A stretch of DNA of 64,000 bases from an uncultured Bacillota bacterium (GCA_902796855.1 CADBQN010000006.1:892-64891); one strand, 5' to 3'. Positions 33,762 to 45,200 are shown, counted from the first letter of the stretch. Made by a program: numbers and translations. Notes: generated by a model not told the origin, from the letters alone.

Positions 33762-33952
33762 GGGCGAACGGTGTGAAAAAAAGCATATCCCACCCCGGAG
33801 GCCGCGCGCGGCGGGGCCCGGGCGGTACCTCATGCGAACGGCAGATCTCTTGACGCCGATCTGATTCGGAGAAACCCCAATTTCGTCGAGAGATAGCATG
33901 AGGACTACCGTCCGGATTGCGCCGCGCGGGCACCCGCGTTGAAGATAAAGAA

Positions 33953-33986
33953 ATCCACTCAGCCGAAAAGCCGAGTGGATTTTTTG
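33953..33986. terminator. Hairpin plus T-tract at left edge of low-GC island
   Basis: atccactc-agccgaaaagcc-gagtggat followed by tttttt. Confidence 0.5.
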
Positions 33987-34042
33987 ACTTTAAAGAACTG
34001 CCCCTTTGAAACTAACTCTTTATTCCGGGACGCGTCCCCTTT

Positions 34043-34265
34043 GGCGTGCCGTCGGAACCGCCTTTGGTGGTTTCATTGGTTTTTGGTGTGCTATCGGAAC
34101 CGTCCTCATCGGTTTCATCGGTTTTCGGCGTGCCAGCGGAACCGTCTTTGGTGGTTTCATTGGTTTTTGGCGTGCCATCGGAACCGTCTCCATTGGTTTC
34201 ATCGGTTTTTGGCGTGCCATCGGGATCGTCCCTGTTGGTTTGCTGTTGGTTTTCCCCGTTGGTTT
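34043..34265. repeat. Tandem array of five 42-bp repeats (GGCGTGCCATCGGAACCGTCTTTGGTGGTTTCATTGGTTTTT consensus), preceded by a GGGACGCGTCCC palindrome
   Basis: Units at 34043, 34085, 34127, 34169, 34211, last one 44 bp and degenerating; open in 4 of 6 frames; minus frame would read a KPMKP-rich 14-aa repeat from a TTG start. Confidence 0.8.
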
Positions 34266-34319
34266 AAGGGAATGTATCAAATAGTTAGCAAAAAGAGCTC
34301 TGAGGGTTCCACAAATAGG

Positions 34320-35477
34320 CTATATACTTTTCTTCCATTCTTTGTATAATTCGGCACATTTGGCAACACAAAAAGCTGAAAACAATAAACCACCGCCATT
34401 TCGTTTGTTATCTTTTTCAATCTGAACTTTGTACTGAGCTTTGATATCATTATCAGAGAAATCATCAAAATGTATTTTGAGATATTTGTCAAAATCATCC
34501 TTTTCCTGTGCGTCTTTAAAAATGAGAAGCTGATTGAAATTATTCTCACGACTGGAAATATCAAGTGACCCATGAGTAAAAAGCCGCAATAGTTTCCCCT
34601 CTATGGAATCCAACAAATAGCATGAATACCAAAAATCGTCTCTACCGGCTACAGCACAGGTTTTCGCTTTGGGAAGGTATTTTCGAAACCCATCAAAACA
34701 CCAAAGTTCCGTTTCATAAATAATTGTGTTATGAAACATGATGTTTAGTGGAGCAAGATGCATCTCCGGATCTGTATAAAATGCTGCGGGTGCCAACCAA
34801 TCAGGTTTCATTTTCCCGAATTGTTTTATTTGATACTCCGGAAAATCGGTATGGTAAGAGTAATTCTTATTACCCCAATCCATTTCCCAATTATCAATAT
34901 CATCCAATAATATCATTAACCGTTCTTTAGGAGGTCGATCAATACCGAAACGCTTTCGCCATAAATACTCTACATCATTCATATCAGCGTTTCCATCGAT
35001 TGCAGTGTTATTATCAACCACTCTCGTATAGATTCGATACGGAAGAACTGTTTTTCCAATCTTTTTACCGTCCGAAGATGTAATATTCCCATCTTGATAC
35101 GATTTTTCCAAATAATACGGAACATCAGATGTATTTTTTACAATAAGCACATCGATTTCATGATTTTCTATGGTAATTGTCCTCATTTCAATACGGGGTC
35201 TAACGCTTCCGGCATAGTGAATATTCCTTAAAATATTTACAACACGCTGTTGATCTCGCCTATTTGCATCGTTTTCCACGCCGAGGATTTCAAAGGTCTG
35301 ATCTCCAATACCAAAAATAATATATGCATCACGATCTGCCCGCGAATTTGCCATACAGGTTATATCATGAACAAGATCACCTTTATCATGATGATGCTCT
35401 CTTTTGAAATCCCACCAATCATCTTCACGTTGAGACTGTATCAGTTCTTCAATTACGGATGTTAAATCTTTTTCCAC
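34320..35477 (-). CDS. Schlafen/AlbA_2 (PF04326) domain protein with uncharacterised C-terminal domain, likely defence-associated
   Basis: N-terminus 'EELIQSQREDDWWDFKREHHHDKGDLVHDITCMANSRADRDAYIIFGIGD' fits AlbA_2 core; AT-rich codon usage; last gene of island operon. Confidence 0.55.
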   Translation of the reverse strand: MEKDLTSVIEELIQSQREDDWWDFKREHHHDKGDLVHDITCMANSRADRDAYIIFGIGDQTFEILGVENDANRRDQQRVVNILRNIHYAGSVRPRIEMRTITIENHEIDVLIVKNTSDVPYYLEKSYQDGNITSSDGKKIGKTVLPYRIYTRVVDNNTAIDGNADMNDVEYLWRKRFGIDRPPKERLMILLDDIDNWEMDWGNKNYSYHTDFPEYQIKQFGKMKPDWLAPAAFYTDPEMHLAPLNIMFHNTIIYETELWCFDGFRKYLPKAKTCAVAGRDDFWYSCYLLDSIEGKLLRLFTHGSLDISSRENNFNQLLIFKDAQEKDDFDKYLKIHFDDFSDNDIKAQYKVQIEKDNKRNGGGLLFSAFCVAKCAELYKEWKKSI

Positions 35478-35536
35478 AAAGATACCTCCTGACTATTATA
35501 AACAGGGATATTTCCAAACAAAGCCGTCCCTTTTAA

Positions 35537-38437
35537 TCAAAAGCTAAGGATATTGTTTAAAATAACAAGGTTAAAAATAAACTGTTTTTCCCCTTCTTTG
35601 AACTTCACATTAATATAACCCTTGTCAGTATCTTTTTTTGTAATCGTACCTTCGCCGAATTTTTTATGAGTTACCTTCATTCCGATTTTCATATCATCAA
35701 AAATTACTTCGGCATGATTTGTTTCGGCTTCGCTTGCTTTTTCAGTCTTTTCAGCAGTACCCTTTTTGCTGACCGTCTTATGTTGGCTTCGTATATCGGA
35801 ATCAGCTTCCACTGTTTTTTCTAAAGGCTTCGTCTCTTCTTCACGAAAAACCGGTTCAGACAGATCCATATCATTTTCCATTGTTGCCTGCTGATTGTAA
35901 AAAAGCTGCTGGTATTCTTCTTTTTTGATAACCGTGTCCCAACCGCCGACATCTTTTCCTTCGTGTTTATCTATACCTGTGTAAGAAAGACTGCTGTCCT
36001 CATACCGCTTAAATTTAAAAATAGCGTCATTCATCAAGCTCGCGTTGAACACTCCCAAAGCGCAGAGCAACTCAAAATCCTTTACGTCAAGACCGGTAAC
36101 TTTTTTGAAAAGTCCGGGTTCAAGCTGGGTAATTACATCTTTCAGGGTGCGCTCACGGTAATCCGTCAGATACATGAAAACCGGAATACGCGTGGCAAAT
36201 TTGATGAGCTTTTCCTGAATCTGCTTCCGCATGGATTTATATTCTTTTTCCTCTGCCGTAAGCTCTTTCTTTTCTTTCTTGGAAAGCTTATCTTCTCCCT
36301 CTTTCTTGGCTTTTTTAACCTTCTCCGATTTATTGATAATGGTCTCAATATCGCTGTTTAAGGAGCGGAACCCCTCAATATGCATCAGGGCGTTCAGCGC
36401 TTCTTCACTTGCCAGCAACCGGGAAAGCGTTTCATTATCTACATTCACCAGCAACGCGGACTCCCAGCGGCGCGCAAGCAAAGTAGCGGAAGTACCGGCA
36501 AGAGCAATATCAAGAACATCCTGCGCGGAAATCTGTTTCATGGTTGAACCGTCATAGGCCAGCACAGGCAGGAAGCTTATAAACTCCGCGACTTTCTTTT
36601 CAGGATTATCTTCATTGACGTTCAGGCGGCAGGAATAATCGGAAATCTGACGAAGCGCACGGTCAAGAGCAAAATCAAAAACATAGCATTCCTGCTTCAT
36701 TATCTGTTCTTTTCCCGCGTCGTCCTTTATTGTCCATGGCGACTGCACACGAAAAGCCGTTTGAAAATACGTTTCGGGGCTTTTCAGATTCCGCAGCATA
36801 AACACGCCTGTCCACGGTTTTATCGTGACGCCCGTTGTGAGTTTGCCGCAGGAAAGGGTAATTGTTTTTGTGGCAAGCGGATTATCCATCGCGTTTTGAA
36901 CAGGGCGCAAAGCATCAAGACCGATACCAGCCTGAGAACCGGCGCAGACAACAACTTTATAATCTCTGAAATAGTTATCCTGCATCAGAAGATTATTCAT
37001 TGCATAGCAGGCCGCGACATTCGGCAGAAACCAAAGCGTATGATTCAGCACCGCCAAAAGCCGGGCATCAGAAAAGGGCATCGGCGGTCGTTTATCCTGT
37101 CCCAGTTTCAAATCATCCACACTGGAAGGAAGATATGACCCGCGGATAAGCTGAAGCCATTTATAGACCTCGTTTTCATAAACGAATTTAGCATTTTCAA
37201 CGGTATCACCTTCCTGCACTTTCGCGGAGAAAAAAACATTCAGGTCAAATTCGTTAAATTCCCCGTTCAGTGCAATCTGGCGAATACTGTCCGGAATTTG
37301 ATAGGTGAGCATCACCATTCGAGGCAGAGCGAGATAGGGATTATCCGAACCTTTCCAGTTCTCTTTTGCTCTTTGCTCGTCTGAATAAGTCCAGTTATAA
37401 ATCTGATCTTCTATAAATTCACCGCTGTTAAGGGCGCGGAACGGAGTTCCGGACAGGAATAAATAATACTGCGTGGTAATGGGCAAAAATGTTTCGTTAT
37501 AGGCGTTATCCGCCTCATCCTTTTTATATTTTTCCTGGTCAAAGTCGGCCTCTGCCTCTTCATCGGGATTTTCAAAAAGCTTTTTTGCGTTTTCTCTCCA
37601 CGCTCCGAAATGGTACTCGTCAAAAACAACCAAATCCCAGTTGGCCGAGTGAATAAACTCATTCTTGGACTTGATGCCGCCGTTTTCATTCGTGCCCAAC
37701 AGGTCTTGAAACGAACCAAAGACAACAATCGGTCTGCTTTTATCCGCGTTGTCAAAGGCCTGATCGATATTGATATTCTGACCGTGCGCGTCTTTGTTTG
37801 ACACAAACTGCCATCCCTCAAAATCGGTATGGCCCGCCAAATCCTCCGCCCACGCGGATTCCACCGCCGGTTTAAAGGTAAGAACAAGAACTCTCTTTAA
37901 CCCCATCTTTTTTGCCAGCTCATAGGTGGCAAAGGTCTTGCCGAAACGCATTTTGCAGTTCCAGAGGAATTTCGGCGCGCGGGTGGGCTCGGCCTCCTCA
38001 GCCTGTTTAAAATAGCTCATCGCACGCTGAACGGCCTCTGCCTGTTCCGGACGCATTTGAAAAGACAGGGTTCTGTTTTCCGTGTTTTCCGTATTGTCCC
38101 GCACCGCAACAATCGCGGCTTTTACCGCGTCTAAATCACATTGGTACCATTCGTTTCGATCCGCTCCGGCGTTCAGCTGACGATACCCGCGCCGACGAAG
38201 GGCCGCATGAATGTCATGGTCAGTAAAACAGCTCCCATCAGGGCGCACAGCGGGTTCGGTCAGCACGATTTTATACGGTACAGCGGAAGTGTGCATCTGT
38301 TCTGCAACACGGGTCTCAGCGTCACGTTCGGTATATCCGATTTTCAGATAGCCCTTGTGGGACGCAACGCCGATAAGCTCATACGCATATATGGTTGGCG
38401 TTACTTCTGGACGAGGGGCGAAAAAATCAATAGCCAT
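35537..38437 (-). CDS. Fusion protein: N-terminal T5orf172 (GIY-YIG-superfamily) domain + SNF2-like SF2 helicase/ATPase + coiled-coil + C-terminal Tudor-like domain; putative restriction/effector subunit
   Basis: 'TIYAYELIGVASHKGYLKIGYTERDAETRVAEQ' = T5orf172; 'KMRFGKTFATYELA' (motif I), 'WDLVVFDEYHFGA' (motif II), 'LFLSGTPFRA' (SNF2 motif III); C-terminus 'MKVTHKKFGEGTITKK...INVKFKEGEKQF' like the UvrD/PcrA C-terminal Tudor. Confidence 0.65.
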   Translation of the reverse strand: MAIDFFAPRPEVTPTIYAYELIGVASHKGYLKIGYTERDAETRVAEQMHTSAVPYKIVLTEPAVRPDGSCFTDHDIHAALRRRGYRQLNAGADRNEWYQCDLDAVKAAIVAVRDNTENTENRTLSFQMRPEQAEAVQRAMSYFKQAEEAEPTRAPKFLWNCKMRFGKTFATYELAKKMGLKRVLVLTFKPAVESAWAEDLAGHTDFEGWQFVSNKDAHGQNINIDQAFDNADKSRPIVVFGSFQDLLGTNENGGIKSKNEFIHSANWDLVVFDEYHFGAWRENAKKLFENPDEEAEADFDQEKYKKDEADNAYNETFLPITTQYYLFLSGTPFRALNSGEFIEDQIYNWTYSDEQRAKENWKGSDNPYLALPRMVMLTYQIPDSIRQIALNGEFNEFDLNVFFSAKVQEGDTVENAKFVYENEVYKWLQLIRGSYLPSSVDDLKLGQDKRPPMPFSDARLLAVLNHTLWFLPNVAACYAMNNLLMQDNYFRDYKVVVCAGSQAGIGLDALRPVQNAMDNPLATKTITLSCGKLTTGVTIKPWTGVFMLRNLKSPETYFQTAFRVQSPWTIKDDAGKEQIMKQECYVFDFALDRALRQISDYSCRLNVNEDNPEKKVAEFISFLPVLAYDGSTMKQISAQDVLDIALAGTSATLLARRWESALLVNVDNETLSRLLASEEALNALMHIEGFRSLNSDIETIINKSEKVKKAKKEGEDKLSKKEKKELTAEEKEYKSMRKQIQEKLIKFATRIPVFMYLTDYRERTLKDVITQLEPGLFKKVTGLDVKDFELLCALGVFNASLMNDAIFKFKRYEDSSLSYTGIDKHEGKDVGGWDTVIKKEEYQQLFYNQQATMENDMDLSEPVFREEETKPLEKTVEADSDIRSQHKTVSKKGTAEKTEKASEAETNHAEVIFDDMKIGMKVTHKKFGEGTITKKDTDKGYINVKFKEGEKQFIFNLVILNNILSF

Positions 38438-38441
38438 ATTA

Positions 38442-40025
38442 TCACTCCAACTCCATCTTTGGTATTGACTCTTCTATAACTTTGACTTCGTGTTCATTCA
38501 ACCCATATTTTTCGTATAGTTTTTCATCCGTCCATCGAATAGAGAAGTCTTGAATTGGGACAAACTCATAAGCTTTTGGAGGCATGTCTTGTGTTGAGGT
38601 TTTTATAGCAACTAAAAACCTCAGAAATTTGGTTGATATATACGCCATTAAATTATCGGCTTCTTCTTTCGATAATCTTCTATCTGGCGGTAAAGCAACA
38701 ACATAAGTATTAGAACTACACGAATTCGGTGCACTAATTTTTGGCTTTCCAACTATGCTTCCACTTGGATTTCCTGAACGAGGAATTATTACTTTATATT
38801 TGTTAACTGCCTCTCTGTTCTTTGGGATGCTTTTTTCAGCGACATAACACATTCCGCCATGAATATACACTTTTACTTGTCTAGCGTTAGTAGGCTTTGA
38901 ACTCATAGCAATAAAGCTTTTCCCGTCCGCTGTCTGAATTAAACCGTCTTCTTTATTCCCGTTCCAGTCAACTTTTGTATGGAACCCGAAATATCTACCA
39001 GCATTTAGCCATTCAGATAATGAGGGTTCGTTAATCTTTTGAACCTTTTTCAAAACTGATATCTGGGCATCATTCCTTATAAAGGTTTCCATATCTTTTT
39101 CAAGCAATGGACGTTCAGTCATGCTGACATAATCTCCATCATGTGAAAAAACCTGACAAAGCCCTCTATTATCCCTATCCCATAGGAAATAACACACTCC
39201 ACCTTTTATCTCCACTCCAGGAAAGCAATCTGAGGCTGTAGGATAGTCGTGGATGACCCTTATTCTATCATCATGAAGCATGTCACTTCTAAATGAATCC
39301 AGCCCTCGTCCACCCATGAACCATCGAGCAGGGATAATCATGCAAAGATACTTTGGGGATAGTTTTTGCGCCTGTTGTACAAACTTTTGATATATCGGCA
39401 AAGCGCTTGCAGCATTACCTCCATCACTAAGATGATATGGAGGATTACTAATAATTACATCAAATTTCATATTAAATGCCTCCTGTGGCTTTAACATATG
39501 AATGAACTCATATGCATGAGTTTCCATAGTTTCGCCTCTATCCTCTTCTCCAAGAACAGTCTTATTGGAAATACCGCAATATATACAACGCCTATCTTTC
39601 CAATTATGTTGGATTTTTTTATACCTTATGTTTCCCTGAGCTGTGTCAAATCTCGTAACAGAGTATTCACTATTGGGGTACTTCGAACAGTAAATGCTTC
39701 TTCTAGATAGCAAGCTAGTCAACTCAGTAATAGCAATGCCATAGATCTGGTTTTGAAAGATATGGTCTATTCTTTCTTGCAAATCAGGGAATTGCCATTC
39801 TAATCCTTTTATCAAGCGTTTTGCTATCTCCCGAAGAAATACGCCACTTTTACAAGCAGGGTCAAGAAACTTCGTATCAGGATTTTCAAACAATTCCTGC
39901 GGGAGCATATCCAACATTGCATTGGCTATATCCGGCGGGGTAAAAACCTCATCATTTGAAAGATTCGCTAAACAAGTCAGAACATCAGGGTTATATATAT
40001 TTCCAAAAAGACCATTATCAGCCAT
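38442..40025 (-). CDS. Gamma-class N6-adenine DNA methyltransferase (Eco57I/TaqI-like) with C-terminal putative TRD
   Basis: Motif X 'DEVFTPPDIANAMLDML', motif I 'FLDPACKSGVFL', motif IV 'DVIISNPPYHLSD'. Confidence 0.8.
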   Translation of the reverse strand: MADNGLFGNIYNPDVLTCLANLSNDEVFTPPDIANAMLDMLPQELFENPDTKFLDPACKSGVFLREIAKRLIKGLEWQFPDLQERIDHIFQNQIYGIAITELTSLLSRRSIYCSKYPNSEYSVTRFDTAQGNIRYKKIQHNWKDRRCIYCGISNKTVLGEEDRGETMETHAYEFIHMLKPQEAFNMKFDVIISNPPYHLSDGGNAASALPIYQKFVQQAQKLSPKYLCMIIPARWFMGGRGLDSFRSDMLHDDRIRVIHDYPTASDCFPGVEIKGGVCYFLWDRDNRGLCQVFSHDGDYVSMTERPLLEKDMETFIRNDAQISVLKKVQKINEPSLSEWLNAGRYFGFHTKVDWNGNKEDGLIQTADGKSFIAMSSKPTNARQVKVYIHGGMCYVAEKSIPKNREAVNKYKVIIPRSGNPSGSIVGKPKISAPNSCSSNTYVVALPPDRRLSKEEADNLMAYISTKFLRFLVAIKTSTQDMPPKAYEFVPIQDFSIRWTDEKLYEKYGLNEHEVKVIEESIPKMELE

Positions 40026-40731
40026 TTTCTGTAATCCTCCTATAATGGATTAACGGATATTCGTTTACAGGTTTCGGAATAAGTTTCTTTGTAATGGGAT
40101 CAAATGTCCAATTATTATAATTCAGCGCAACATCGTCAAATAAATTTTGTTCTTCTGCGTAGTTACTCTTATTCGAATTTTCTTTCAAAAGAACATCCAA
40201 GCGGAAATCACGCCGTTTTATTCTCGCGTCGTTAAAAGGAAACGTCCATTCAGCGAAAATAATGGGGGTTTCTGTGTCCTGCTGGTTCTCATCAACACAC
40301 ATCAGGCTCAGGGCGTTTCCGCAAACGATATTCTTTTGCAGGATATACCGCGCGGCGGTTCTGGCCTCATCGTTGGCTTCCTTTTTGCAAACCGCCGTAT
40401 ATTCCGCGTCCCACAGGGCAAACAGATTTTCGCGGCATATTTCAGCGTTATCCGCTAAAATATCTACACCGTAAAGGCTCGTCAGCGCAAGAATGGCGTT
40501 TCGCTCATAATCATAGGCGCTTTTTTTGTATTTTGATTTTACCACCGCCAATTTACGGGAAAGAATCTCCGCAAGGAAAACGCCCTCGCCTACGGCAGGC
40601 TCTAAAAATCTTGAATCAATCCGCAGACATTCATCCGCTACCAAATCACACATGGCCTTTACTTCACGCTCAGCGGTAAATACTTCCCCGTGGTCAGATA
40701 TACGCTGTTTTGTTTTTACTTGCTTTGCCAA
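40018..40731 (-). CDS. N6-adenine MTase-like protein with motifs X and I but degenerate motif IV (NPPY -> GNAL); likely catalytically inactive paralog or partner
   Basis: 'HGEVFTAEREVKAMCDLV' (X), 'FLEPAVGEGVFL' (I), 'IVCGNALSL' in place of NPPY; 8-nt overlap with downstream MTase. Confidence 0.55.
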   Translation of the reverse strand: MAKQVKTKQRISDHGEVFTAEREVKAMCDLVADECLRIDSRFLEPAVGEGVFLAEILSRKLAVVKSKYKKSAYDYERNAILALTSLYGVDILADNAEICRENLFALWDAEYTAVCKKEANDEARTAARYILQKNIVCGNALSLMCVDENQQDTETPIIFAEWTFPFNDARIKRRDFRLDVLLKENSNKSNYAEEQNLFDDVALNYNNWTFDPITKKLIPKPVNEYPLIHYRRITENG

Positions 40732-40762
40732 AAGTATAAACCCCCATTTCGGTCAAAAAGGA

Positions 40763-41224
40763 TTATTTCATCACAACCGGAACCGTTTCCAGTCCGAGGC
40801 GTTTTGCCGCGCAGTATCGCAGGTATTCCCCTTCTAAAAGGTACTTTGAACCGTGACGCGAAACGACGAGCGGTTTTCCCAAATCGCCGTGGATTTTATA
40901 GTATGTCACCATCCGTTCAATCGCCGCTTCCGCCGGCTTTTCATAATTGGCGTTCACCCTTATGCTCTCAAGCGCGATAAACCATTTGCTGAATGACGCT
41001 TTTCTGTTTTTGACCGGTTTTCGCGTCTGAACAGGTTGAGACGTATCCTCTTTATAATAATCGCAGTGGCCCGCGCCATAGCAGCGGTCGGAATGTTTTA
41101 CGCAATAGGCGTTTTCTTTGCGATAAAAAATACATTTACTCCGGTGGCGGCGGTCGTCGTCTTCGCCCCGTGTGAATTTTTCCACATGCCACGGCGTACC
41201 GGTCAAACGATTCAGCCCGGTCAT
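40763..41224 (-). CDS. Zn-ribbon + ParB/Sulfiredoxin-like nuclease (ParBc) domain protein
   Basis: 'CIFYRKENAYCVKHSDRCYGAGHCDYY' Cys/His cluster; C-terminus 'LESIRVNANYEKP...LLEGEYLRYCAAKRLGLETVPVVM' matches ParB N-terminal domain; start ATG 41224 with AAAGAGGTG RBS. Confidence 0.6.
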   Translation of the reverse strand: MTGLNRLTGTPWHVEKFTRGEDDDRRHRSKCIFYRKENAYCVKHSDRCYGAGHCDYYKEDTSQPVQTRKPVKNRKASFSKWFIALESIRVNANYEKPAEAAIERMVTYYKIHGDLGKPLVVSRHGSKYLLEGEYLRYCAAKRLGLETVPVVMK

Positions 41225-41368
41225 CGCGAACACCTCTTTTCTCAAAAAACAAAACAATATAACAAAAAATATTCCAATTATATTAAATTCCACATATTTC
41301 CTCTTTTTCCTTCTTCCCCTCCCCTCACCCCTATTCTACCACCGTCCCGGTGACATTTTCGGGACATG

Positions 41369-41390
41369 AAAAAACCGCCGGAGCGGCGGT
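41369..41390 (-). terminator. Terminator of GNAT gene at right edge of island
   Basis: minus-strand RNA accgccgcuccggcggu followed by UUUUUUC. Confidence 0.5.
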
Positions 41391-41443
41391 CTTTGACGCG
41401 GGGCGGCGCGTTCCGTTGGGGGAAACCGCGCGGCCCGGGGCTT

Positions 41444-42157
41444 TTAAACGTTTTGATATGCGTAAATCAGTTTGTCATAGGTCTTTTCTCCGACGGTGAG
41501 GCCGTCCTTTTCGGTGCGGATATGGCGCATCCCGGCTTTTTCAAGGACTTTTCGGGAGGCCTCGTTCTCCGCGGCGCACCAGGCGGTGACCGTGGCAATG
41601 CCCTCGTTTTCCGTCAGGTATTCCAGCACTTTCTGCAGCGCCGCCGTCGCGTAACCGCGGCCCTGCCATGATCGTTTGACGCTGAAACCGACCTCGATTT
41701 GGTCGTCCGCGTAATCATAGGCGCCGATCGTCCCCATCAGGACGCCGTCCACGTCCATCGCCCAGCCGTAAAAGCGCTCGTCGTCGTAGCTTTTTATGAA
41801 CCGGCGCACGGTCTCTTTCGCCTTCTCCGGCGTGGCGTAGGGGTTCCAGCCGGAGTATCGCGACGCTTCGGGGTCTGTTCCAAAGCTTTGAAAGAGCGTC
41901 TCCGCGTCCTCGGGGGTGTATCTCCGCAGGGTCAGCCGCTCCGTCCGAAGCTCCGCCGTGCCGTGGACCTCGATTTCCTCCATGGCGGCGATCTGAGAAT
42001 TGTACAGGAGAAAATTCCCGATGATCACGCCGTCCTCGTCGCCGCCGTATTCATGCGTCAAAAACGCCTGGCTGCAGTGGGACGCGAAACCGATGAAGGT
42101 CTCGCCCCAAATGTCCGTTGCCCGGACGTGTTTTTGGTCGAATTTCGTGAGATCCAT
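41444..42157 (-). CDS. GNAT (RimJ/RimL-like) N-acetyltransferase with extra N-terminal ~60 aa (start uncertain; alternative ATG near 41992)
   Basis: 'ERLTLRRYTPEDAETLF' RimL-type N-terminus; 'QGRGYATAALQKVLEYL' acetyl-CoA site. Confidence 0.7.
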   Translation of the reverse strand: MDLTKFDQKHVRATDIWGETFIGFASHCSQAFLTHEYGGDEDGVIIGNFLLYNSQIAAMEEIEVHGTAELRTERLTLRRYTPEDAETLFQSFGTDPEASRYSGWNPYATPEKAKETVRRFIKSYDDERFYGWAMDVDGVLMGTIGAYDYADDQIEVGFSVKRSWQGRGYATAALQKVLEYLTENEGIATVTAWCAAENEASRKVLEKAGMRHIRTEKDGLTVGEKTYDKLIYAYQNV

Positions 42158-42257
42158 TTTTCACTCCTTTTTCATAAAACGGCGCGCCGCGCCATAAAAC
42201 GCCTTTGCTTTCACACTGCCATTATACACGAAACAGCGGGAGAAACCAAGCGCAAAT

Positions 42258-42282
42258 CAAAACCACCGGCCGAACCGGTGGT
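42258..42282. terminator. Terminator hairpin AAACCACCGGCcgaaCCGGTGGTTT (copy 2 of repeated element)
   Basis: Near-identical to hairpin at 31198-31232. Confidence 0.55.
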
Positions 42283-42288
42283 TTGATT

Positions 42289-45200
42289 TCACTTGATGAG
42301 GTTTTCCAGCGTCTCAAAGAGGAGCTCCGGTTCCACGGGCTTGCTCAGGTGCGCGTCGAGGCCCGCCTGCATGCTCCGCTGAACGTCCTCGTCAAAGGCG
42401 TTGGCGGTCAGGGCGATGATCGGGACGGTCTTCGCGTCGGCGCGGTCCATTTCCCGGATCGTCCGCGTCGCCTCGAGGCCGTCCATTTCCGGCATTCGCA
42501 TATCCATGAGGATGGCGTCGTAGTAGCCTTCCTCGTGTCCGCCGAACATCTCCACGGCGACTCTGCCGTTTTCGGCGTGCTCCACTTCCATCTCCCGCAT
42601 GGAAAGGACCATCATCATGATCTCGGCGTTGACCATGACGTCTTCCGCCAGCAGGACGCGGCGGCCCTTGAGATCGACGGTCTCCTCCACCAGCTTCGCG
42701 TTTTTCTTTTTAAAGGCCTCGCGGAACTCATCCATCACCGTCCCGGCGAAGAGGGGTTTTGCAACAAAAGTATCCACGCCGGCCTTACGGGCCTCTTCTT
42801 CAACCTCATCCCAGTTGTAGGAAGTCAGAATGATAATTGGCGTATGATTCCCAACGATAGCACGGATCTGCCTTGTCGTCTCCACACCATCCATTTCCGG
42901 CATCTTCCAGTCCACGAGAATCAAGTTGTAATCCTTCCGGCGGGTATGACGCATTTTGACCATTTCAATGGCGTCCTTGCCGGACAACACCATCTCACAA
43001 CTGATCCCAACCTGCTCAAGAATGATCTGGGCGTGTTCGCAGGCGATGCGGTCGTCGTCGACGACCAGCACGCTCATTTCGTGGGGGCGAATCTCAATGT
43101 CATCGTTGTCAGAAGCAATGTGACTCGACTGCCCCAGTGTAATGGTGACGGTAAACGTGGTTCCAACACCTTTTTCACTTTCCGCTTCAATATGGCCGTT
43201 CATCAGTTCTACAATATTTTTTGTGATGGGCATGCCCAGACCGGTGCTGCCATATTTATTGGTCGTAGACGAAGCCTCCTGTGAAAACACTTCGAACAGC
43301 TTAGGCAGATATTCCTTGCTCATGCCGATACCGGTATCGCTGATAGTACAGCGCAGCGTAGCATTGCCGTCCATCCTTGCCACATCTTTAATGATAAAGG
43401 TCACGGTACCATCTTCGGGTGTAAACTTGACAGCATTGCCCAGAATATTGATCATCACCTGGCGCAGTTTCATGTCGTCGCCGATATAATATTCGTCAAT
43501 CTGTCCCTCTGTCCGGCACTCGTAATGAATCCCTTTATCCCGGCACTGTCCGCTGATGATGGTGTTGACCTGTTCCAGCGTCTTGGAGAAGGAAAATTCC
43601 TCGTTCTTGATGGTCATCCGCCCGGACTCGATGCGGCTCATATCGAGGATGTCGTTGATGATGCCAAGCAGATGATGGGCCGAGGTGCCGATCTTTTCCA
43701 GATATTCCCGGGTCTGGGCGGAAATTTCCGGGTCGCTCAGCGCGATATTGTCCAGACCGATGATGGCGTTCATCGGCGTGCGGATCTCGTGGCTCATGTT
43801 GGAGAGAAAAGCGGTTTTCGCTTTGTTAGCCGCTTCCGCCTCTGCCAGTGCGTCCTGCAGTACCTGACTCTGCGTCATGGACTTGCGCGTTTCCAAATCC
43901 ACGTCTACGAAGCAGGCGCCAACGATATGCACCAGATGATCTATGCGGTCTTCCGGACGGCGCACCCCGGCGAAACGCACTTCCTCCCATGAATCCCGTC
44001 CATGCCGATGCACCATGTACCGATAGGCGATAACCCGTTGCTCCAGCAACAGGGCTTTTACGTTTTCCGGCTGAATGAAGCGCAGGAATTCCTCACGGTA
44101 TTCTTCCTTAATATTCGTGTTCGCATAGGCGGTCACGGCGGTAATATACCGGAAATGATCCCCAACACGGAAGCCGTTCTCAACGTCGCTGTGCGCCTGA
44201 TAGCACACTCCCTCGTCGTGATCCAGATCCAGATAATAGACGCTCCAATAGTCGGAAGCCAGCGCCGTAATCATGCGGGTCTGTTCTTCCTGCTGTTGCT
44301 TCTGCGCGAGCAGTTCTTCTTGTAACTGAATACGCTGTTCCATTTCTTCCCGCTTGATGCGGTTCTCGGCCTCGGCAGTTTCCCTTTCCAGTATAAGCTT
44401 CGAGTTTCTGCGGCTTTGCCGAACGATAAAAGTAAACAGCCCTAACATAACAGCGATGGTCAGCACCGACTGAATAACGCTCCTCCGAACGATACCAGCG
44501 GAAATGGTGCTGATGTTCTCACTGATCACGCTTTCCCGGATCAGATAGGTCAGACGCCAGTCCGTGCCTTTCACAGGAACATAGCTCAGCGTTTCCCGAA
44601 TACCATTGTAGGTGAAGCAGACCTCGCCGTTTTTTCCCGCGGTAAAATCCGACACAAATCCTTCATAGGAATAGCCCGGCTCAAATTCGGCGCTGCGCAT
44701 GGCTTCGAGCAGATTATCTTCCACGGCAAGACCGCCCAAGACCGTGTTGCTCAGGGCGATGCCGTTGCTGGTATAGATATTGCAGAAGGTCGCACCGTCT
44801 TCTTGGGCGTCCATGGAAACACCGGCAAGCATTTCATCCATGTCGATCTGCATGAAGCAGGCAACCAGTTCCGTATCGGCAAACTGAATGTGAGTGGGAA
44901 CGGCAATGATGACTTTTTTATCGGCACTCTCTAAATTCTCTACCAAAATTTCCGGTCCCTGCAGCATATGATAATCAAATTGGTACTGATTGATCTCTTC
45001 CTGCGGCCCGGTGGAGGTGTAAATCAAATCGTCGGCACCGACAAAAGCAAACCGCTCCAGATTAAAAAGTCGCTTGATCCGTACTTGATACGCCTGGAGA
45101 TGTGCGTTATCGCTCAGATCTTCTTCCGTCATCAGGTCCAAAGCCGTTTCGATGACATTGACTTTTTCCCGCATATTCCCCGCTACGACCTGCTCACGGC

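Follow-up and report, generated by a model that had tools for sequence, protein, structure and literature searches.

Introduction

Type III restriction-modification (R-M) systems pair a beta-class Mod methylase with a Res subunit that carries a C-terminal PD-(D/E)xK nuclease. In Type ISP enzymes such as LlaGI and LlaBIII, restriction proceeds by ATP-driven translocation with cleavage on collision, and two head-to-head unmethylated sites are needed. The classical Type IIG and IIL enzymes (Eco57I, MmeI) each consist of one chain that has a PD-ExK nuclease but lacks an ATPase (PMC3553950). The DUF499-centred Hma system consists of the HmaA helicase with its C-terminal PD-(D/E)xK nuclease, the HmaB methylase, and the HmaC DUF499 ATPase. 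For a further cluster, dnmA-yeeB-yeeC, deletion mutants of Vibrio crassostreae have been reported to be more sensitive to phage (PMC9973331). The present study concerns a low-GC (guanine plus cytosine) island within a 64,000-nucleotide (nt) stretch of DNA, hereafter the window, from an uncultured Bacillota bacterium (GCA_902796855.1, CADBQN010000006.1:892-64891). The island holds five genes, here called A to E, and three of these, B, C, and D, form a cassette that joins an adenine methylase to a putative ATP-dependent nuclease-helicase. This cassette is a probable variant of ATP-dependent R-M, very widespread and uncharacterised, and the core of the island is a typical member.

No characterised member of the B-C-D cassette was found in the literature, and the names in public records are generic ('GIY-YIG nuclease family protein', 'DEAD/DEAH box helicase', 'N-6 DNA methylase'). 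Systems of this kind were already known to exist, unstudied, since the authors of the Type ISP studies refer to a 'wider cohort', uncharacterised, that combines helicase subunits with GIY-YIG nucleases.

Results

Genes B, C and D are inherited together

A first-pass annotation of the window had read the five genes as one R-M-like defence operon. All five are on the minus strand and tightly packed, and their open reading frames (ORFs) lie exactly where that annotation had placed them (lengths in amino acids, aa):

40763-41293, minus strand: gene A, 176 aa from a GTG start or 153 aa from an ATG at 41224; near-orphan
40018-40731, minus strand: gene B, 237 aa from a TTG start; methylase-like small subunit, catalytically dead by its motifs; first gene of the cassette
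38442-40025, minus strand: gene C, 527 aa; Eco57I-family gamma-class N6-adenine DNA methylase
35537-38437, minus strand: gene D, 966 aa; T5orf172 domain followed by a superfamily 2 (SF2)/Snf2-like ATPase
34320-35477, minus strand: gene E, 385 aa; prokaryotic Schlafen type, with an N-terminal SLFN/AlbA_2 nuclease and a C-terminal domain

B and C overlap by 8 nt, and the gaps are 4 nt between C and D, 31 nt between A and B, and 59 nt between D and E.

We surveyed 160 related loci, comprising the best 80 genomic loci and 80 of the 151 viral contigs that encode a relative of D, and probed them by tblastn with A, B, C, and E of the window. Sequence of 2.6 kb or more upstream of D made 57 genomic loci informative, and 67 viral loci were informative as well. 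C was found upstream of D at every informative genomic locus (57/57) and B at all except one (56/57), always in the order B-C-D, while the viral contigs carried C in 67/67 and B in 53/67 cases. Neither A nor E was detected at any surveyed locus (0/80 genomic and 0/80 viral for each gene). Because A and E are absent from all 160 loci while C and B are near-constant beside D, the unit of inheritance is B-C-D, and A and E are local additions; the view of the five genes as a single co-conserved system is thus abandoned. Individual neighbourhoods present the same picture every time, in which D is preceded by an Eco57I methylase gene and that, in turn, by a B-like gene of about 230 aa.

In a scan of one genome per species, relatives of D occurred in at least 596 species from more than ten phyla, including Clostridia, Bacteroidota, Fibrobacter, spirochaetes, Desulfovibrio, Lentisphaeria, and Anaerolineae, as well as Myxococcota, Bdellovibrio, Mollicutes, Nitrospiria, actinobacteria, and proteobacteria. 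Clostridia and Bacteroidota of the gut and rumen carry the cassette particularly often. Across the listed phyla the identity of D is 58-77%, which indicates horizontal spread. At E<=1e-30 the family of D comprises 1124 protein clusters (clustering at 50% identity), and metagenomes hold thousands of close relatives of both D and B. An intact B-C-D cassette stands beside an excisionase in a complete gut phage genome, and others are found on mobilisable plasmids and next to integrases or resolvases. The genes that flank the cassette vary by locus and encode helix-turn-helix (HTH) proteins, BrxA, NACHT, GmrSD, AIPR, AAA ATPases, integrases, SymE, Fic, or toxin-antitoxin pairs.

C and D are separated by 0.4-3 kb at 15 genomic loci, and several of these gaps house toxin-antitoxin pairs, YhcG-like or RhuM-like proteins, or an insertion sequence. 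A comparable 'embedding' of genes has been described for Type I R-M, bacteriophage exclusion (BREX), and Hma systems. The C-D junction appears as an embedding hot-spot at loci L019, L023, L033, L034, L056, L059, L070, L071, L078, L081, L082, L089, and L094, and also at L012, where the embedded genes include toxin-antitoxin pairs, YhcG/DUF1016-like and RhuM-like genes, an IS4 transposase, and several unknowns. By 'guilt-by-embedding', these unknowns are candidate defence genes.

Two further arrangements were observed at the borders of the cassette. A GmrSD-type Type IV restriction gene lies directly downstream of D at L004/L005 (13017-16070), L011 (10968-12788), and L168 (9419-12505), a pairing that recurs in unrelated lineages, including a distant subfamily with a split methylase; D together with GmrSD would cover both unmodified and hypermodified phage DNA. 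In one lineage (L001-L003, 7315-7575), an 86-aa gene of the BrxA family lies directly upstream of the B-like gene with a 4-nt overlap. In the window this slot belongs to A, and at other loci to small HTH genes, a hint that these loci share a need for a small regulatory or DNA-binding protein.

The methylase C and its putative specificity domain

C had been called an intact Eco57I-type N6-adenine methylase, and the profiles agree (Pfam Eco57I 8.7e-34; PADLOC MTase_II 8e-50). Its parts are as follows:

39126-40025, minus strand: catalytic domain of C, from the conservation profile
39843-39869, minus strand: motif I, from the sequence
39435-39446, minus strand: NPPY motif, from the sequence
38676-39053, minus strand: hypervariable putative target-recognition domain, from the conservation profile and shuffling

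Motif I and NPPY are intact in C and invariant across its orthologues. Conservation is high over residues 1-300 (identity to the window residue 0.5-0.86) and low over residues 325-450, which are hypervariable (0.05-0.28). In 2016 orthologue pairs, the identity of this variable region is uncorrelated with that of D (Spearman 0.05), compared with 0.44 for the catalytic domain of C. At L041 and L042, D is 99% identical and residues 325-450 are 28% identical; at L017 and L051 the figures are 68% for D and 81% for residues 325-450. Because this region is hypervariable and is shuffled independently of D, we read it as a putative specificity domain, and it behaves like a target-recognition domain that is exchanged by recombination.

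Four residues of C (C113, H140, C147, and C150, within residues 113-150 at 39576-39689) are invariant in 31 methylase orthologues, which suggests a zinc-binding insert within the catalytic domain. A near-identical copy of part of the island was also observed in another sample, at locus L015 (ENA ERZ1029114, k87_89221276), which matches 39862-42773 at 99.9% identity from the GNAT gene through A and B to about codon 55 of C and then passes into unrelated DNA that holds small ORFs and repeats of the GGGGTGTCG type. At this break C is interrupted at motif I, apparently by a rearrangement or the insertion of a mobile element. A genuine break would mean that cells can do without the methylase, in keeping with a restriction subunit that needs C to find its target.

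The putative nuclease-helicase D and its fused relatives

D had been described as a fusion of T5orf172, an SNF2 helicase, and a Tudor domain. The first two parts stand: Pfam T5orf172 matches at 5e-9, the T5orf172/MUG113 N-terminus belongs to the GIY-YIG clan, and the ATPase motifs are present. The Tudor match in the tail is weak and below threshold (E 0.0036) and was detected in 4/28 close relatives, compared with 26/28 for T5orf172 and 17/28 for ResIII; SNF2-type profiles match the fused relatives discussed below. The features of D are:

38093-38404, minus strand: T5orf172 (GIY-YIG-superfamily) domain, from Pfam
36668-38065, minus strand: SF2/Snf2-like ATPase core, from motifs
37934-37942, minus strand: Walker A GKT, invariant motif
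37610-37621, minus strand: DEYH, invariant motif
37442-37453, minus strand: SGTP, invariant motif
36743-36763, minus strand: motif VI (QxxFRxQ), invariant motif
35903-36667, minus strand: conserved helical region, from conservation
35540-35902, minus strand: lineage-specific tail, with a small beta-barrel near its end at 35558-35695

Orthologues from many phyla all keep Walker A, DExH, SGTP, and motif VI, and likewise Y17 of the T5orf172 domain, in which E96 is nearly invariant. The tail (residues 846-966) occurs in one lineage only, mostly gut Clostridia and Bacteroidota, and most family members stop near residue 850. AlphaFold2 builds a confident small beta-barrel in this tail, which is weakly similar to the C-terminal Tudor domain of PcrA/UvrD; in those helicases the domain binds RNA polymerase.

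A single PADLOC 'Type IIG' profile, PDLC03626 (REase_MTase_IIG, 1359 positions), is matched by D over positions 152-798 (9e-34) and by C over 863-1359 (6.7e-48), a match to the helicase-containing fused form and not to a classical ATP-independent IIG enzyme. Because both proteins match this profile, D and C look like two halves of one fused enzyme. Such chains exist: single-chain T5orf172-ResIII-Eco57I relatives of 1320-1464 aa, ordered nuclease, ATPase, methylase, and recognition domain, and with a B-like gene still upstream, are found on plasmids of Enterococcus, Lactococcus, Lactobacillus, and Staphylococcus and in metagenomes. In the split operon it is the methylase gene that comes first, which means that the fusion did not arise by simply reading through the separate genes. 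In the pCV56A fusion a DUF4145-like N-terminus stands in place of T5orf172, as expected if this end is an exchangeable effector or nuclease module.

The methylase-like protein B

B matches MmeI_Mtase only below threshold, and its family comprises 7874 matches. Its conserved elements are:

40675-40689, minus strand: motif X (GEVFT), invariant
40576-40608, minus strand: motif I (FLEPAVGEGVF), invariant columns
40246-40251, minus strand: E161-W162 in place of NPPY, invariant

Motif X (GEVFT), motif I (FLEPAxGxGxF), and YGxD are conserved without exception in 31 diverse orthologues, among them the ones located upstream of fused enzymes, and the NPPY position holds an equally invariant P-I-x-F-x-E-W. 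The motifs for binding S-adenosylmethionine (SAM) are thus kept while the catalytic one is replaced, in line with the earlier call of a dead-motif N6-methylase-like protein. By hhalign, residues 14-69 of B are homologous to residues 24-80 of C (probability 98%, E 2e-13). It was also observed that the NCBI gene call for B begins at an internal Met and gives 211 aa, compared with 237 aa in the ENA call (40653-40731 region). Alignments with hundreds of homologues begin at the TTG start, and the 237-aa form includes the invariant motif X, which supports 237 aa, not 211 aa, as the correct length.

A distant subfamily, in which D is about 34% identical, may bear on the origin of B. At L168, a 312-aa B-like protein (hhalign probability 95%, E 3.9e-8) is followed by a 345-aa half-methylase that has only NPPY and the recognition part, and then by a ResIII helicase and GmrSD. 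The whole subfamily (L167-L178; for example L168 3999-9393) has a split methylase followed by a 1140-aa helicase, and the 345-aa half matches the length of the PADLOC MTase_II PDLC03375 type. This split subfamily marks B-type proteins as natural partners of the Eco57I catalytic and recognition module, and it may be the evolutionary intermediate that explains the origin of B. B itself is probably a SAM-binding yet catalytically dead partner of the methylase module, judged from its motifs.

Genes A and E

No Pfam, NCBIfam, or PADLOC model matched A. Its features and the catalytic-type motif of E are:

41063-41134, minus strand: Cys cluster of A (C54/C64/C71/C77), from the sequence
40772-40972, minus strand: weak ParB/Srx-like C-terminal half of A, from a weak profile match
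35403-35426, minus strand: E18-x4-D23-x-K25 (Ex4DxK) of E, read from the sequence

A had been called a Zn-ribbon/ParB-like nuclease; the Cys cluster is there, while the ParB-like signal is weak (phrog_8071 7.8e-6; Spo0J E 0.71). Among 5.8 billion proteins A has two relatives, of which one is the same locus in another sample and the other, the only non-identical one, is 41% identical and stands without an adjoining B-like gene. A is therefore a near-orphan and not a conserved member of the cassette. At other loci its slot is filled by an HTH regulator or BrxA, and A is possibly a local DNA-binding regulator.

E was recognised from the outset as a Schlafen/AlbA_2 protein and matches Pfam SLFN_AlbA_2 (5e-13) and the PADLOC candidate PDC-S50 (1.9e-110 over 382/387 positions). 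Bacterial Schlafens have been shown to be single-gene, phage-triggered anti-phage tRNases with an N-terminal Ex4ExK-type motif and variable C-terminal sensor domains, and one of them, RorSlfn5, is a 43-kDa protein whose dead mutant is E15A/D20A (PMC13056530). Set beside RorSlfn5 by sequence and by that published description, E likewise has the motif at an equivalent position, a size of about 43 kDa, an SLFN/AlbA_2 N-terminus, and a variable C-terminal domain. Because of the Ex4DxK motif and the PDC-S50 match, we take E to be an independent single-gene prokaryotic Schlafen defence system of a known kind, and by analogy it is probably a phage-triggered tRNase. Its relatives are solitary genes in variable plasmid regions.

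Composition and edges of the island

The GC content, computed in 500-nt windows along the 64,000 nt (mean 0.577), falls from 0.59-0.63 to 0.35-0.50 across about 34,000-41,400 and returns to 0.55-0.62 past 41,250, with an internal bump to 0.53 near 38,000. GC and GC at third codon positions (GC3) are 0.36/0.31 for E, 0.46/0.49 for D, 0.38/0.32 for C, 0.43/0.45 for B, and 0.50/0.55 for A, against 0.57-0.63 and 0.66-0.79 for the flanking genes. From this contrast the 7.4-kb island is foreign DNA of mosaic composition, and the GC3 mosaic hints at modules of differing origin. The first-pass annotation is borne out here in its low-GC island, in its view of horizontally acquired defence DNA, and in the edge features that it listed:

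34040-34241, no strand: 42-bp tandem repeat, 4.8 copies, 80% match, about 53% GC; left edge, outside the low-GC genes
33951-33982, no strand: strong hairpin with a 14-bp stem and T-runs on both sides, bidirectional terminator-like; left edge
41374-41387, minus strand: hairpin and T-run just after the GNAT stop; right island boundary

Within 33990-34290, one minus-strand frame of the 42-bp repeat reads as 14-aa 'DGTPKT(D/N)ET..' units; this frame is uninterrupted between two stop codons and lacks a start codon. The repeat may be a truncated-gene tail left by the arrival of the island, or non-coding.

Housekeeping genes lie on either side of the island, namely tyrS, a hypothetical gene, GNAT, and a hybrid histidine kinase. 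Searches found no tRNA across the whole window, no Rfam family between 30,000 and 46,000, no integrase among the flanking ORFs scanned, and no direct repeats bracketing the island, and the earlier remark that no integrase, tRNA, or recombinase is visible agrees with this. An empty insertion site was sought, and the exact D and GNAT proteins were on no other recorded contig. Taken as a whole, the island is a small composite defence islet of two defence systems and one orphan gene.

Discussion

We hypothesize that the three genes of the cassette work together as follows. The hypervariable C-terminal domain of C would read a specific, probably asymmetric, DNA site, and C would mark host DNA at this site. 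D would be the restriction motor, an SF2/Snf2-like ATPase with an N-terminal T5orf172 (GIY-YIG-superfamily) nuclease, and, having no domain for reading DNA itself, D probably docks on C. An encounter of C with an unmethylated site would then set D translocating along the DNA, which it would nick or cut; this is how Type ISP and Type III enzymes operate. The third subunit, B, likely has a structural or regulatory role. In our judgement it is probable, with some room for doubt, that B-C-D is an ATP-dependent R-M-type system of this sort, and the specific Type ISP-like mode of translocation and collision, proposed by analogy, is less probable than that. Support for the R-M-type reading comes from the strict co-occurrence of B, C, and D, the single-chain fusions, the shuffling of the putative specificity domain, the invariant catalytic motifs, the conserved motifs of B and its homology to C, the carriage on phages and plasmids, and the defence context of the genes around the cassette, and, by analogy, from the phage sensitivity reported for V. 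crassostreae mutants of an analogous cluster. The R-M logic that the first-pass annotation saw in a methylase joined to an ATP-dependent nuclease-helicase is supported.

Several results weigh against this proposal. A few loci lack B (L072, L136, L157), and no fold match was obtained for B. Solved structures compared with B, C, D, and the fused plasmid protein yielded nothing significant (RapA 0.012, HsdM 0.009, BseCI 0.022). LlaGI and LlaBIII in particular were absent from the PDB sequence matches of D, of its profile, and of the fused pCV56A protein (E<=1) and from those of the C profile (E<=10), so that the Type ISP-like mechanism is argued from architecture. The AlphaFold2 model of D, for which the alignment was made from close homologues only, is poor (predicted local distance difference test score 52.7) and confident only at residues 12-115 and 915-960; the top Foldseek matches of this model are ZorD and Snf2 remodellers at a template-modelling score of about 0.15, which is weak support. 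The nuclease role of T5orf172 in D is putative. Finally, the dnmA-yeeB-yeeC operon of Bacillus subtilis, which is the closest analogue studied so far, confers neither restriction nor phage defence, and its DnmA regulates gene expression (PMC9973331).

This last result speaks for the view that B-C-D does not cleave DNA at all, and is instead an epigenetic or exclusion module, whose methylase marks DNA and whose ATPase remodels or blocks foreign DNA in a BREX-like manner, or a decayed relic with an orphan regulatory methylase like DnmA. The BrxA gene directly upstream of B in one lineage, the weak match of C to PglX/BrxX, and the poor characterisation of T5orf172 point the same way. We nevertheless find a non-cleaving cassette improbable: from phylum to phylum the catalytic-type residues of T5orf172 and the ATPase vary little or not at all, which argues against decay; shuffling of specificity domains is typical under phage pressure; PglZ and BrxC are absent from the island; the N-terminal effector is swapped in some fusions such as pCV56A, as expected of a nuclease module; and the cassette is carried by phages and plasmids and sits among defence genes. 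D could also be an autonomous nuclease-helicase defence like Hna, ZorD, or HmaA, with B and C as a separate travelling methylase that, for example, shields the carrier element from other restriction. Single-protein nuclease-helicase defences do exist, HmaA alone defends against T4 (PMC11232893), ZorD heads the structural matches of D, and up to 3 kb of extra genes can stand between C and D. Yet the linkage of C to D is near-perfect over 124 informative loci, covalent D-C fusions recur, D has no recognisable DNA-specificity domain, and the variable domain of C acts like the specificity module of the whole cassette, which makes an autonomous D distinctly improbable.

A single integrated system of five components, A to E, is very improbable indeed. 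The genes are co-oriented with gaps of 31-59 nt, no strong internal terminator or promoter signal rises above background, and co-transcription is probable in this genome. Against this stand the absence of A and E from the surveyed loci, the near-orphan status of A, the single-gene family of E that is found alone elsewhere, the different filling of the slots flanking B-C-D at almost every locus, and the sharply different GC3 of the modules. Within the R-M-type reading there is also a more specific idea, which we regard as unlikely but worth stating, namely that B-C-D is a distinct unnamed class of ATP-dependent R-M in which an obligatory SAM-binding, dead 'half-methylase' gates methylation versus T5orf172 cutting. 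Such gating by B might, for example, sense the depletion of SAM by phage SAM-degrading enzymes or complete a pseudo-dimeric methylase, in which case the split-methylase subfamily would represent an intermediate stage of evolution.

Most interest attaches to what B, the conserved dead half-methylase, does. If the mechanism is as proposed, the cassette would be a major obstacle in gut bacteria both to infection by phages and to the transfer of DNA, with a bearing on phage therapy and on the genetic tractability of anaerobes, and it would be a source of new adenine-methylation specificities. The dead subunit B, together with the natural series of split, fused, and half-methylase forms, offers a route to studying the assembly and evolution of multi-subunit restriction enzymes. 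For annotation, the lesson is that co-oriented, tightly packed genes of a defence islet need not be one system.

Comparison with known systems

The first-pass annotation had found no fit to Type I, Type III, BREX, or the defence island system associated with restriction-modification (DISARM), and this holds, as the defining components are absent. For Type I there are no HsdS or HsdR matches and only weak HsdM-level similarity; for BREX, no PglZ or BrxC in the island, weak PglX/BrxX matches for C, and BrxA in one related locus only; for DISARM, DrmA, DrmB, and DrmC are unmatched and C matches DrmMI weakly. An assignment to Hma fails on the lack of a third ATPase gene and of any PADLOC Hma match. 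Type III (Mod/Res) is alike in pairing a methylase, which supplies specificity, with a helicase-nuclease, and Pfam ResIII matches relatives of D; nevertheless, C is a gamma-class Eco57I methylase, the T5orf172 domain of D is N-terminal, and only the ResIII ATPase profile matches. Type IIG/IIL enzymes share the Eco57I methylase family with C, and D and C jointly span PDLC03626, but B-C-D has an ATP-dependent motor and another nuclease fold. The architecture is less unusual than the annotation had claimed, as D and C are halves of single-chain plasmid enzymes and are covered by one PADLOC IIG profile. The two outcomes that the annotation had named as counting against it, placement in a named class by profile and a lack of co-conservation among the genes, each came about in part.

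The dnmA(yeeA)-yeeB-yeeC cluster resembles the cassette in having a gamma-class adenine methylase of non-palindromic specificity, an SF2 helicase, and a T5orf172 protein in one operon within a low-GC defence island. With YeeB and YeeC sequences that were machine-read from a figure and may contain small errors, a hidden Markov model of the D family matched the T5orf172 domain of YeeC (domain E 1.7e-6 for B. subtilis and 9e-5 for V. crassostreae) and reached YeeB at E 0.006-1.7, in the Walker A/DExH region only. Orthology of D with YeeB plus YeeC of B. subtilis or Vibrio was rejected, as T5orf172 alone is homologous and the helicase is related at superfamily level. T5orf172 forms the C-terminus of a separate protein there and the N-terminus of the helicase in D, the methylase is of the MmeI family there and of the Eco57I family in C, which reaches MmeI_Mtase only at sub-threshold level, and no B-like gene is described there. 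Plasmid pLOCK 0919 was dropped as a source of yeeABC; the genes are chromosomal in another strain.

Type ISP enzymes come closest to B-C-D in working logic and domain order. They are single polypeptides, whereas C and D of the window are separate genes with the methylase first; they have an N-terminal Mrr-family PD-(D/E)xK nuclease, whereas D has a T5orf172/GIY-YIG-like domain; and in the literature consulted they are described without a B-like partner, whereas the cassette has B as an extra conserved gene. C and D nonetheless provide the SF2 ATPase, the gamma-class N6-adenine methylase, and the putative C-terminal target-recognition domain that the type also has. The fused D+C relatives, which like Type ISP enzymes are plasmid-borne in lactic acid bacteria, share with them the N-to-C order of nuclease, SF2 ATPase, gamma-class N6-adenine methylase, and target-recognition domain (PMC3553950, PMC4666363).

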